A DNA stretch of 13,689 nt from Candidatus Hermodarchaeota archaeon (lineage in GTDB: Archaea > Asgardarchaeota > Thorarchaeia > Thorarchaeales > Thorarchaeaceae), in the NCBI GenBank assembly GCA_048885865.1, contig JBHLLF010000061.1, positions 1-13,689 of the forward strand. The letters run 5' to 3'. Position 1 is the stretch's first letter. Each line of letters starts with the position of its first letter. A program made the translations under genes and the position numbers. A model generated the notes under the pieces. It had not been told where the DNA came from. It saw nothing but the letters and a program-made list of their open reading frames with translations, and did not search any database. Positions 1-13,136 of the stretch are shown piece after piece.

Positions 1-164
1 CTCCTACGGTGGATTAACGCCAGTTTCCCGGCGGTGTCCACCTCCACAGGGTAGGTTAGCGACACTACTGAGCCGTTCGCGACGGACTCGGATGCGAGCC
101 CGTTCCACTTGCATGTCTTAACCCCAAGCCGATAGCAGTGTCCTCTAGCAGGATCAACTAGAGT
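1..164 (-). rRNA. rrs: 16S rRNA, 5' end (continues beyond the left edge of the window)
   Basis: Minus strand from 164 reads ACTCTAGTTGATCCTGCTAGAGG...TAAGACATGCAAGT...ACGGCTCAGTA...TAACCTACCC...CGGGAAACTG, collinear with the archaeal 16S 5' domain (ATTCCGGTTGATCCTGCCGGA...). The exact mature 5' end is +/- a few nt. Confidence 0.96.
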
Positions 165-1628: not shown

Positions 1629-1714
1629 TTTGCTATTGGTATCACTAGGAAAGGCTCGTTGATTTCAACATGGATTAAGCAAAGCTGGTACTGGTCGATG
1701 AGTAATACTTCCAT

Positions 1715-1821
1715 AGAATAAAAGGTGATGGAAGGGCGGGGCGAGAACCCCGCCTTTCATTAGCAGAGCCTGGAGGTTATGGCTGCTGCACGCAGTTGTC
1801 GAGCTTCTTCCATCAAATCTG
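1715..1821 (-). ncRNA. Candidate structured small RNA / leader RNA (unassigned family)
   Basis: TATA (TTTATATT, 1851-1844) upstream; 9-bp closing stem TGATGGAAG/CTTCCATCA (1815-1807 with 1734-1726); hairpins GCAG-C-AGCC/GGCT-CTGC and GGCGGGG/CCCCGCC; followed by CCTTTTATT. The strand is inferred from the promoter and U-tract. Confidence 0.5.
1760..1813 (-). CDS. Candidate 17-aa leader peptide / small ORF MEEARQLRAAAITSRLC
   Basis: ATG lies ~8 nt after the predicted TSS and ends in tandem TAA TGA at the base of the GC hairpin. Too short to support by composition. Confidence 0.25.
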   Translation of the reverse strand: MEEARQLRAAAITSRLC

Positions 1822-1843
1822 TATATCAGACATACGAATCGTG

Positions 1844-1851
1844 AATATAAA
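1844..1851 (-). promoter_or_regulatory. TATA box for the candidate small RNA/leader
   Basis: Minus strand TTTATATT, flanked by the inverted repeat ACGAATC (1835-1841)/GATTCGT (1877-1883). Could also act on the + strand (AATATAAA). Confidence 0.5.
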
Positions 1852-1972
1852 GGCAGGATGAACGATAACTCTGTATGATTCGTCTAGCAAGACTCTCCGC
1901 AGAAATATGACTGAAAATCGAAGAAATCGCTTTCTAGCAGCGGGGATTAATCACCAATTCACTCAATTGTCA

Positions 1973-1987
1973 TGGATGAATCATCCA
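1973..1987. promoter_or_regulatory. Palindrome TGGATGA-A-TCATCCA, candidate operator
   Basis: Perfect 7-1-7 inverted repeat 46 bp upstream of the membrane protein/wHTH operon. Confidence 0.45.
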
Positions 1988-2033
1988 ATCACAATAAAGA
2001 CGCAAGAGGAAAGTCTAGGAAAGGCGTACGTCA

Positions 2034-2663
2034 ATGCAGGCAGAAGTGATCGCATTAATCAGACTCGACCTGCTCTTTGAGAGCATCAGTGGCATAATTG
2101 CCATGATAATCGCATACTACGCTACGAAGGCCTACAACCTGACTGAACAGAAGAGGCTCTCTGACCTATCCACGGGCTTCTTGGTCCTTGCAATTGGAAT
2201 GTTCAGCCATGTCATTGGAACATGGTGGTTCTTTGTAAGACTTGGAATAGAAGGCCCAGTCCCTGATTTGGAAACGACTATCAATGTGGTCACTCTTACA
2301 TACCATTTCCTGCAGATCATGGCCTATGTGTTGTTTGCCATTTCCACAAGAAGAGGTGGAAGAATCAAGCAACCCGAGATGGTCATGTTCATGGCACTGC
2401 CCATCCTGATTGATGCGAATCTCGAACTGATTACGGTATTCCTGATGTTGGTTGTTGTCTTGCAGGCATTGCTTAACTATGCAATGGGAAGGAGCAGATT
2501 CGGGCTGTATGTGCTAGGTGGATTCTTCCTGATTTTTCTGAGCCACATATTCCTTCTTACTGCAGGAGAGAATGTCATCAGATATCTCCTAAGTCAGGCA
2601 TTACAACTCCTTGGCTTCTTGACACTCTTGCTCATGCTGTATAAGGTAGGCAAAGCGGAATGA
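2034..2663 (+). CDS. Uncharacterised 6-TM membrane protein built from two 3-TM repeats
   Basis: 209 aa with six hydrophobic segments. E16/A30/Y34/G48-F49 recur as E131/A145/Y149/G163-F164; SH and LQ motifs occur in both halves. Confidence 0.88.
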   Translation: MQAEVIALIRLDLLFESISGIIAMIIAYYATKAYNLTEQKRLSDLSTGFLVLAIGMFSHVIGTWWFFVRLGIEGPVPDLETTINVVTLTYHFLQIMAYVLFAISTRRGGRIKQPEMVMFMALPILIDANLELITVFLMLVVVLQALLNYAMGRSRFGLYVLGGFFLIFLSHIFLLTAGENVIRYLLSQALQLLGFLTLLLMLYKVGKAE

Positions 2664-2953
2664 GTAGAAAACGGGCGTATCGCTCCAAGATGCGCATCCT
2701 CGCCGATATGATGCGCGCCATCCAGAGTGAGGGTGAGGACGGAGCAGGTCCGACAAAGATACTCTATGCTGCCAATCTTTCCCATGATAGATTGACTCAG
2801 TATCTTGATGAGCTTGAGGATAAGGAACTTATCAATCGGATTGGAGATGGTGAAAGCAACAGAGTCTATCATCTCACAGAGAAGGGGAGAGAGTTCCTGA
2901 GTGAGTTTGCGAAGATGGAGAAGTTTTCCGAGGCATTTGGAATCGAGATTTAA
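2660..2953 (+). CDS. Archaeal winged-helix DNA-binding protein (COG3432/Sso10a-like HTH)
   Basis: RSKMRILADM...TKILYAANLS...YLDELEDKELI...YHLTEKGREFL matches the family pattern. ATGA overlap with the upstream gene. Confidence 0.9.
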   Translation: MSRKRAYRSKMRILADMMRAIQSEGEDGAGPTKILYAANLSHDRLTQYLDELEDKELINRIGDGESNRVYHLTEKGREFLSEFAKMEKFSEAFGIEI

Positions 2954-2962
2954 CGATGCCTC

Positions 2963-2974
2963 AAAGGTTTTAAG
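2963..2974 (+). promoter_or_regulatory. tRNA-Ala promoter (BRE+TATA)
   Basis: AAAGG-TTTTAAG ~27 nt before the tRNA. Confidence 0.7.
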
Positions 2975-3001
2975 AAATACATCTTGGAGTCTCAAAGCCA
3001 T

Positions 3002-3109
3002 GGGCCGGTAGATCAGACTGGTAGATCGTCTGATTCGCAAAATCATAGGATTTTCCCTGTGAATCGGGTCTTCAGAAGGTCGCGAGTTCAAATCTCGCCC
3101 GGTCCACCA
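3002..3109 (+). tRNA. tRNA-Ala(CGC) with a 31-nt intron at 37/38 (3040-3070); CCA encoded
   Basis: Acceptor GGGCCGG/CCGGTCC with G3:U70, A73, CCA; D-stem GATC/GATC; anticodon stem TCTGA/TCAGA, loop TT-CGC-A; T-arm GCGAG-TTCAAAT-CTCGC. BHB: central helix TTCG/CGGG, bulges CAA and TCT, intron helix AATCATAGG/CCTGTGAAT. Confidence 0.95.
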
Positions 3110-12994: not shown

Positions 12995-13136
12995 GCCGAG
13001 GTAGTCAAGAGGCCAAAGACGGTGGACTCAAGATCTAAGGCTTTGACGCCCATGGGATATCCACTCCCGTAGGGGTTCGCTGATTGGCTGCCAATCAGCG
13101 CCCAAATCGCGAGTTCGAATCTCGTCCTCGGCACCA
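12995..13136 (+). tRNA. tRNA-Leu(CAA) with a 26-nt intron at 37/38 (13033-13058) and a second 30-nt insert/intron at ~46/47 (13077-13106); CCA encoded
   Basis: Acceptor GCCGAGG/CCTCGGC, A73, CCA; D-stem GTC/GAC; anticodon stem GTGGA/TCCAC, loop CT-CAA-G/A; variable arm TCCCGTAGGGGT; T-arm GCGAG-TTCGAAT-CTCGT. Removing both inserts yields an ordinary 86-nt class II tRNA. Confidence 0.93.

Follow-up and report, generated by a model that had tools for sequence, protein, structure and literature searches.

To judge from its sequence, the minus strand of the window (by which we mean the whole 13,689-nt stretch of archaeal DNA analyzed here) encodes, at positions 1820–1717, a real and previously undescribed structured small RNA that is specific to one family of Asgard archaea and matches no known RNA family. 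Probably it is a new, separately selected sRNA that acts in trans, most likely as a protein-bound scaffold, and not a regulator of the adjacent 344-aa gene. The earlier note had given that regulatory role first place and kept a stand-alone sRNA of ~100 nt as its fallback; it is the fallback that the RNA's own promoter, its T-rich tail, and its conservation irrespective of neighboring genes now favor. The predicted length is ~95–105 nt, the start being placed by the spacing from a TATA box and the end by a U-tract. In one search of sequencing runs, those that hold the locus were all DNA runs, from sediment, mangrove and soil, with no RNA runs among them.

The architecture can be read directly off the minus strand. 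The TATA box, TTTATATT, occupies 1851–1844, 28 nt upstream of where P1 begins. The 5' strand of P1, UGAUGGAAG (1815–1807), is the perfect complement of its 3' strand, CUUCCAUCA (1734–1726). Between them come the junction strand J1/2 (1806–1790; family consensus A-N-A-Y-CGA-N-R-A-CUGC-R); the bulged hairpin P2 (1789–1763), in which GCAG-C-AGCC and GGCU-CUGC enclose the loop AUAACCUCCA; the purine-rich junction strand J2/3, UAAUGAAA (1762–1755; family consensus ..UGAAW); and the hairpin P3, GGCGGGG-UUCUCG-CCCCGCC (1754–1735). P3 directly abuts the 3' strand of P1, and since no linker separates them the two helices should stack. The module is followed by CC-UUUUAUU (1725–1717), the likely termination signal, and by a repeat of AUGGAAG at 1714–1708; a 17-codon ORF, MEEARQLRAAAITSRLC, starts at 1813. 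All the features that the earlier note had listed—TATA box, stems, GC hairpin, U-tract, ORF and AUGGAAG—are found where it had placed them. When 1825–1705 is folded, the minimum free energy structure is exactly this three-way junction (-43.1 kcal/mol, z = -3.59), and only 1 of 200 shuffled sequences folds as well. As we picture it, the RNA consists of an invariant P1 (8–9 bp) and a 7-bp GC-rich P3 stacked end to end, with P2, free in sequence, hanging from the conserved junction strands, and a 3' end that would read A-CC and then run into a U/C-rich tract.

The element occurs once in the window's genome, as judged by a search with the 161-nt region around it, and this sets aside a simple repeated terminator or MITE, an outcome that the earlier note had named as one that would count against it. 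BLAST finds the same region in 22 of 36 relatives within the family and in none of the other families, and in distant relatives the match coincides exactly with the limits of the predicted RNA. From 21 sequences we built a covariance model, which matches 1816–1721 of the window at 101 bits and detects the RNA, always as a single copy, in 69 of the family's 86 genomes, all Thorarchaeota metagenome-assembled genomes (MAGs), representing 14 of the 16 genera. The class has only one other family, the sister family, and the model detects no copy there, nor in 124 genomes from 26 other families of the phylum. In most family genomes without a match either the entire locus is missing or the contig breaks off at it, and because the genomes are MAGs such absences are soft. 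The RNA therefore appears confined, as far as we have searched, to one Asgard family of Thorarchaeota-type MAGs.

Wider scans agree. An exact-pattern search of ~186,000 species genomes returned 57 loci, 52 of them in records titled Candidatus Thorarchaeota, Promethearchaeota or unclassified archaeon, titles that identify the carriers as Asgard archaea. The remaining five are bacterial and are not members: none scores above 35 bits, whereas no archaeal sequence falls below 55; two are plain hairpins, and the others are apparently chance matches in GC-rich DNA. Metagenomes contributed 46 further contigs, for a total of 81 distinct sequences once non-archaeal chance matches are set aside. E-values from a home-made covariance model are rough, and we rely instead on the clean separation of bit scores, members falling between 55 and 101 and everything else at 35 or below. 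Two genera depart from the pattern: g2 has a 60-nt form from which P2 has been deleted (33 bits), and g12 has a degenerate form (~19 bits). Some lineages, evidently, can dispense with part of the RNA or with all of it.

Comparison of homologs for covariation, which the earlier note had proposed as a check, bears the structure out. In a model-based alignment of 55 sequences, 91.4% of the cells are paired; sliding the partners by one to three columns leaves no more than 59.8%. In 98 cells both partners have changed, against 31.3 ± 4.8 in shuffled alignments, and none of 500 shuffles reaches the observed covariation score; an alignment of 37 sequences gives the same picture. The signal resides entirely in P2, where seven of the eight modeled pairs are changed on both sides. 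This arm has ~30 unrelated sequence types and varies in length from ~16 to 41 nt, and when the segment is folded alone it forms a hairpin of 5–12 bp in every full-length member. The sequences are related, so that shuffle-based statistics overstate significance, but ~30 independent solutions to the same hairpin make the case robust despite this kinship. Pairing in P2 is strongly supported by covariation, and because the element is conserved, it is far more than a product of chance.

The rest of the molecule behaves differently. Almost no sequence change is seen in P1, in P3 or in the junction strands. The eight inner pairs of P1 are unchanged or altered only to G-U, with 99.5% of cells paired, and its 3' strand is invariant across the alignment; the stem of P3 is fixed except for G-U changes, its loop varying in both sequence and length. 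In J1/2 the CUGC is almost invariant and the CGA at least 90% conserved. P1 and P3 do not covary because there is hardly any variation in them, and their support comes from perfect complementarity and from changes limited to G-U. Folding energy does not reveal which strand is transcribed: the opposite strand of the window folds about as stably (-42.3 kcal/mol, z = -2.12), and the sense strand is the more stable of the two in only 20 of the 55 sequences. The one-sided changes in P1 and P3 are more telling. Ten produce G-U and one produces A-C, an excess that fits pairing on the minus strand, and the promoter and the T-rich tail, being on this strand also, count toward the same assignment.

That the element belongs to no described RNA family, as the earlier note had suspected, is confirmed by Rfam 15, which has no match to it at gathering score. 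Across the whole window, at those scores, the database recognizes nothing besides two tRNAs with introns and, at the edge of the contig, the 5' end of a 16S rRNA. A permissive scan of 1600–1950 gives skipping-rope RNA (RF02924) as its best hit, at 17.8 bits compared with the 36.7 required. Skipping-rope, a motif described from bacteria, does resemble the Asgard element, for in it too a terminal helix closes a multi-stem junction whose nucleotides are conserved, and it is likewise an orphan of comparative genomics with no known function. The match rests, however, on a generic closing helix and a GC hairpin, and the Asgard RNA has no counterpart to the model's first hairpin.

Several specific classes were considered and rejected. 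ARAGORN reports no tRNA, no tRNA or tRNA-Sec model matches at E-values up to 10, and the P3 loop has no conserved sequence of the kind a tRNA-like gene would show. A canonical 5S rRNA (contig C5) and RNase P RNA (contig C4) are encoded elsewhere in the same genome, and SRP RNA is present in another genome (G034) that also carries the element, so it is no stand-in for a housekeeping RNA. The catalytic core of the hammerhead comprises CUGANGA, GAAA, and the A15.1-U16.1 pair with H17. J1/2, at 14–16 nt, contains CUGC-R rather than CUGANGA, the base of P3 lacks an A-U pair, and no Rfam ribozyme model matches, which disposes of the hammerhead and the other small self-cleaving ribozymes. Box C/D RNAs carry RUGAUGA and CUGA boxes within a K-turn, and H/ACA RNAs a pseudouridylation pocket and an ACA box. 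The UGAUGG of our element is fully Watson-Crick paired in P1, and inspection of the alignment reveals no tandem G-A pairs; the tail is ACC rather than ACA, and no Rfam model of the snoRNA type matches. Thirty-nucleotide bulge-helix-bulge mini-introns are common in Thorarchaeota, and the P2-less form in g2 raised the question of whether P2 might be one. Its length of ~16–41 nt speaks against this, as do its flanks, J1/2 and J2/3, which are not complementary. What the element does have are the attributes of a generic trans-acting sRNA: a TATA box at a fixed distance, a T-rich tail, and an invariant sequence amid changing neighbors.

The 54 distinct loci fall into two states of one locus: promoter followed by gene and RNA, and promoter followed by RNA alone, the conserved promoter being the same one in every case. 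In 24 of the 31 loci of the second kind, a motif of the form TTCAT-N6-7-CTTTATAT precedes the RNA core by 23–34 nt, a distance from which transcription is predicted to start at P1 or a few bases before it. The other 23 loci contain an inserted gene, and in 20 of these the same TTCAT motif lies before the ATG of that gene instead, mostly by 27–31 nt (range 4–31), a spacing that implies a leaderless mRNA. The gene encodes a secreted protein of ~185 aa with a signal peptide, which belongs to no Pfam family and falls only among 'hypothetical protein' clusters in a language-model atlas; in the window's own genome it was not found convincingly. Where it is present, the RNA begins at its stop codon or within 14 nt of it, and no separate TATA box is visible. 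In 13 of the 23 loci P1 opens with the three bases of a UGA stop; in the other 10 a UAA or UAG lies 7–14 nt upstream of the RNA. Relative to the reading frame of the stop codon, the RNA is placed differently from locus to locus, which rules out read-through or recoding of the upstream gene. The comparison thus shows genera in which the promoter drives the secreted-protein gene, with the RNA beginning at or over its stop codon, and others, including the window's genome, from which the gene has gone, leaving the promoter to drive the RNA alone.

Such a layout invites comparison with CpxQ and SroC, the enterobacterial small RNAs derived from 3'-UTRs, in that in 23 loci out of 54 the RNA sits at or within 14 nt of an upstream stop codon and no separate promoter is visible. 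It differs from them in that, in the window's genome and many others, the RNA is predicted to be a primary transcript. CACC follows P1 directly in ~50 of the 55 sequences, the A-CC coming after an 8-bp helix, and a T-rich tract follows the RNA in 36 of the 54 loci. A long GC-rich helix with T's after it, at the end of a transcription unit, also has the look of a 3'-end element.

Might it be just that: a structured terminator or stability cap, acting in cis on whatever the promoter transcribes, originally the mRNA of the secreted protein, and having no function in trans? We regard this as rather unlikely, yet a good deal speaks for it. The element is always at the 3' end of its unit and abuts the upstream stop in those 23 loci; P1 and P3 together make a GC-rich helix of 15–16 bp, which T-rich sequence follows in the 36 loci just mentioned; two Acidobacteriota contigs contain plain hairpins of the same words, and in one a run of T's comes next; and P2 has been lost in g2 and the element has decayed in g12. 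Against it, the invariant parts are equally invariant with or without the upstream gene, while the proteins encoded on either side have diverged to 45–55% identity. Equal conservation in both states of the locus indicates that the RNA is under selection of its own, and where the gene has gone and the promoter fires straight into the RNA there is nothing left to terminate, so that such invariance is not what one expects of a mere terminator. Nor does a simple hairpin need a fixed junction strand of 14–16 nt, or helices fixed in sequence, and archaeal transcription needs only oligo-T in order to terminate.

The gene on the far side of the RNA tells us what it does not do. The earlier note had placed a riboswitch or attenuator ahead of the 'His protein', the 344-aa membrane protein encoded on the same strand at 1595–561, which in the window does begin 131 nt downstream. 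Synteny already contradicts this. The 344-aa gene follows the RNA in only 6 of the 54 loci, at distances ranging from 76 to 581 nt, and a conserved TATA box of its own precedes its ATG by ~20 nt (1624–1616 in the window). In the other loci the downstream gene is most often a convergent M1 aminopeptidase (~30 loci), or else a zinc-ribbon protein (11) or a TatD hydrolase (7). The zinc-ribbon protein has only weak, sub-cut-off matches to Pfam zinc-ribbon families and was not found convincingly in the window's genome. With no recurrent downstream gene, and with a convergent one in ~30 of the 54, the element does not qualify as a riboswitch or other cis-regulatory leader, and no riboswitch or leader family in Rfam matches it.

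The proposed switch fares no better. Of the three partners that the earlier note had assigned to 1734–1728, the one in P1 is conserved. The other two are there in the sequence of the window, but they have not been maintained: the downstream copy of AUGGAAG (1714–1708), the partner that would bypass the terminator, recurs in 2 of 54 loci, and the pairing of J2/3 with the 3' strand of P1 (the 1754–1760 region) is imperfect and degrades in relatives. No expression platform is left. Translational coupling through the 17-codon ORF falls as well. In relatives the ORF ranges from 4 to 77 codons, its ATG is missing in three loci, and within a single genus a 1-nt indel shifts its frame while the nucleotides CGA-CAA-CUGC are kept. 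Frame lost and nucleotides kept means that conservation is at the level of RNA, and the same evidence—length, frame and start codon all unconserved—rejects a leader peptide or small protein. That the leader of the 344-aa gene contains a riboswitch or a translation-coupled attenuator we consider very improbable, and the trans-acting RNA that we prefer would leave that gene unregulated.

What lies on the other side of the promoter is more constant. A divergent operon begins with a six-helix membrane protein (2034–2663, plus strand) that is DUF7521-like, its match to Pfam PF24365 scoring 26.5 bits, just under the cut-off of 27. Its gene adjoins the RNA in 49 of the 54 loci, and it shares the RNA's narrow range, being present in 24 of 26 genomes of the family and in none of 124 others. 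The second gene (2660–2953, plus strand) encodes a winged-helix regulator of the HTH_45 family (PF14947, E = 3e-20) and is present in 44 of the 54 loci. Upstream of the RNA's TATA box is a block of GAATCAT-type repeats, in the window CTAGACGAATCAT...TCGTTCATCC (1887–1856, minus strand), that is the most conserved part of the intergenic alignment across genera; it resembles an operator and may bind protein. A perfect palindrome, GATGAATCATC (1975–1985), adjoins the TATA-like box of the divergent operon (~1991–2000) and has the word GAATCATC in common with that block. A possible gene in the same interval, 'orf57' (1907–2080, plus strand), is unlikely to be real, since the conserved stretches in it are those of the promoter and operator blocks, and since it starts upstream of the TATA-like box of the operon.

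These shared operator-like words make it plausible that the RNA is co-regulated with the membrane-protein/HTH_45 operon, and the HTH_45 protein itself probably sets its transcription. The palindrome does not define a regulon: GATGAWTCATC occurs 5 times in the genome against ~1.7 expected, too few to be significant by itself. The layout recalls bacterial pairs such as OxyR/OxyS and GcvA/GcvB, in which the sRNA gene is divergent from the gene of its own transcription regulator. Here too an sRNA gene lies head to head with a regulator operon, and repeated operator-like words stand beside both TATA boxes of a shared control region. The Asgard locus differs in being archaeal, with TATA/BRE promoters and an HTH_45 protein, in that its regulation can be surmised only, and in that the pairing of sRNA and regulator is broken in one genus. 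There the promoter, the extra gene and the RNA are 7 kb away from the divergent operon and still together; the repeat block, too, stays with the RNA where synteny with the operon is broken (L045).

How the RNA works must be guessed from what has been held constant. We suggest that it acts in trans and that it most likely serves as a binding scaffold or as the RNA component of a specific RNA–protein complex, a role that would explain why the helices and the junction are fixed in sequence. Fixed helices, a fixed junction and a free hairpin would fit a ribonucleoprotein or scaffold better than they fit a base-pairing seed or a bare terminator.

The best case for a base-pairing seed can be made from P2, whose loop in the window exposes, unpaired, the C/U-rich word CCUCC (1776–1772), resembling an anti-Shine-Dalgarno sequence, with which the RNA might mask the ribosome-binding sites of targets, as Methanosarcina sRNA41-type archaeal sRNAs do by pairing with such sites. 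CUCC, CCUC or UCCU is found in 11 of 30 P2 types compared with ~4.5 expected from shuffles, and the complement GGAG is depleted, with 2 sequences against 12.4 expected. Yet this is the least conserved part of the molecule; the other 19 types have no such motif, in several of the P2 types the motif is base-paired, g2 has no P2 at all, and what is invariant lies outside the loop, so that we think this reading quite improbable. A target search with the junction is uninformative: the complement of the J1/2 core (TGCAGTTGTCG) occurs exactly 3 times in the genome against ~1.7 expected by our own calculation, and its 95 occurrences with one mismatch or fewer are at chance level and show no bias toward gene starts.

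A ligand-sensing aptamer, which would work like a riboswitch, in trans or on the transcript that contains it, and bind its ligand in a pocket formed by the conserved junction, seems to us a shade less probable still. The concentration of conserved nucleotides at a three-way junction from which a hairpin of free sequence projects is just what such an aptamer might show, and the linkage to a membrane-protein and regulator module, and to a secreted protein, would suit it. The absence of an expression platform and of any conserved downstream gene argues the other way, as do helices invariant in sequence, which are unusual in aptamers, and the single copy, with no second instance near related genes.

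One further resemblance deserves mention as a lead, not as a classification. Two coaxial helices capped by a hairpin loop and ending in a single-stranded A-CC bring to mind the minihelix formed by the acceptor and T-arms of tRNA, substrates of which type are acted on by RNase P and the CCA-adding enzyme. The tRNA genes of the window's genome end in A-CCA. The stack in the Asgard RNA is 15–16 bp, however, rather than 12; its loop varies and has no T-loop consensus; the terminal A is never encoded; and no tRNA model matches. If the likeness is more than superficial, the RNA could be the core of an Asgard-specific ribonucleoprotein or signaling RNA whose output is set by the DUF7521-like membrane sensor and the HTH_45 protein, its helix-plus-ACC end mimicking a tRNA acceptor, matured by RNase P, whose cut at P1 would free it from the upstream mRNA, and finished by the CCA-adding enzyme. 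We offer this as a speculation, and an unlikely one.

Almost no non-coding RNAs of Asgard archaea were found to have been described in our search of the literature, and these organisms are not yet genetically tractable. The present RNA is a clean case: single-copy, family-wide, with textbook covariation in one arm, rRNA-like invariance elsewhere, and a recognizable regulated promoter. Should its function be that of a mere 3'-end cap, its interest would be modest. As it stands, it provides a concrete target of ~95 nt in Thorarchaeota for metatranscriptomics, pull-downs and structural work, and the candidate regulon of which it seems to be part (HTH_45 operator, membrane protein, secreted protein and RNA) has a logic that can be tested in vitro. 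The locus also displays a 3'-UTR element and a free-standing sRNA gene as two states of one and the same locus. And if its end does mimic that of tRNA, the archaeal lineage nearest to the eukaryotes would have provided a new class of regulatory RNA, one that mimics tRNA ends.

Between the conserved promoter (TATA box at 1851-1844, minus strand) and the ~95-nt small RNA, a protein-coding gene is found at other loci: a family of ~185-aa signal-peptide proteins lies there at locus L011 (943-1503) and at 22 further loci. These proteins share the C-terminus Q-x-G-R-I-H-R, have no Pfam match, and are predicted to be translated from leaderless mRNAs. At 13 loci the gene runs directly into the RNA, the first three bases of the closing helix, P1, serving as its UGA stop. 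The gene was not found in the window's genome.

On its other side, the promoter faces the divergent operon of a DUF7521-like membrane protein and an HTH_45 winged-helix regulator, across a 438-bp spacer that contains two promoters (1856-2000 region). Related operator-like words, GAATCATC repeats, occur at both, among them a perfect palindrome, GATGAATCATC (1975-1985), that adjoins the TATA-like box of the operon; the recurrence of related words at both promoters suggests that a single regulator may govern the spacer in both directions. Two ORFs hereabouts look conserved by tblastn but are probably not genes: one (1907-2080, plus strand) overlaps the spacer's promoter and operator blocks, and the other (2594-3091, minus strand) lies opposite the HTH_45 gene and a tRNA gene. 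Both intron-bearing tRNA genes of the window (3002-3109 and 12995-13136) encode their 3' CCA genomically, ending in ..GGTCC-A-CCA and ..CGGC-A-CCA, respectively. A 16S rRNA gene (1-164, minus strand), of which the window holds the 5' end, runs past the start of the contig, leaving the rRNA operon interrupted in this assembly; the nearness of the RNA to this gene is particular to this genome.

The hairpin of variable sequence, P2 (loop at 1771-1780 in the window), is biased in its words when the P2 loops of relatives are included: C/U-rich words (CCUCC, CUCC, UCCU) are enriched, occurring in 11 of the 30 sequence types versus ~4.5 expected, and GGAG is depleted. Hairpins built of the same words as the stacked P1 and P3 helix (GATGGAAGGGCGGG...CCCGCCCTTCCATC) occur on Acidobacteriota contigs (L065, 1142-1232; L073, 3181-3265); these are plain hairpins, coincidental look-alikes of that helix.

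The RNA also occurs in two natural deletion variants. Genus g12 has a degenerate form (L117, 2841-2957, and L122), with an altered P3, the GC-rich hairpin, and a 20-nt insert preceding the 3' strand of P1. Genus g2 has a 60-nt form that lacks P2 altogether (L119, 2366-2425), followed on its 3' side by UUUUUU and then, from ~2491, by a gene for a zinc-ribbon protein. Proteins of this kind, 140-205 aa of repeated CxxC zinc ribbons, are encoded on the same strand immediately 3' of the RNA at 11 of the 54 loci compared, in several genera (for example, L007, 1688-2179; L006, 1591-2082; and L016, 1512-2129); the window's genome has a weak, partial match only. The zinc-ribbon protein is possibly an RNA-binding partner of the RNA.
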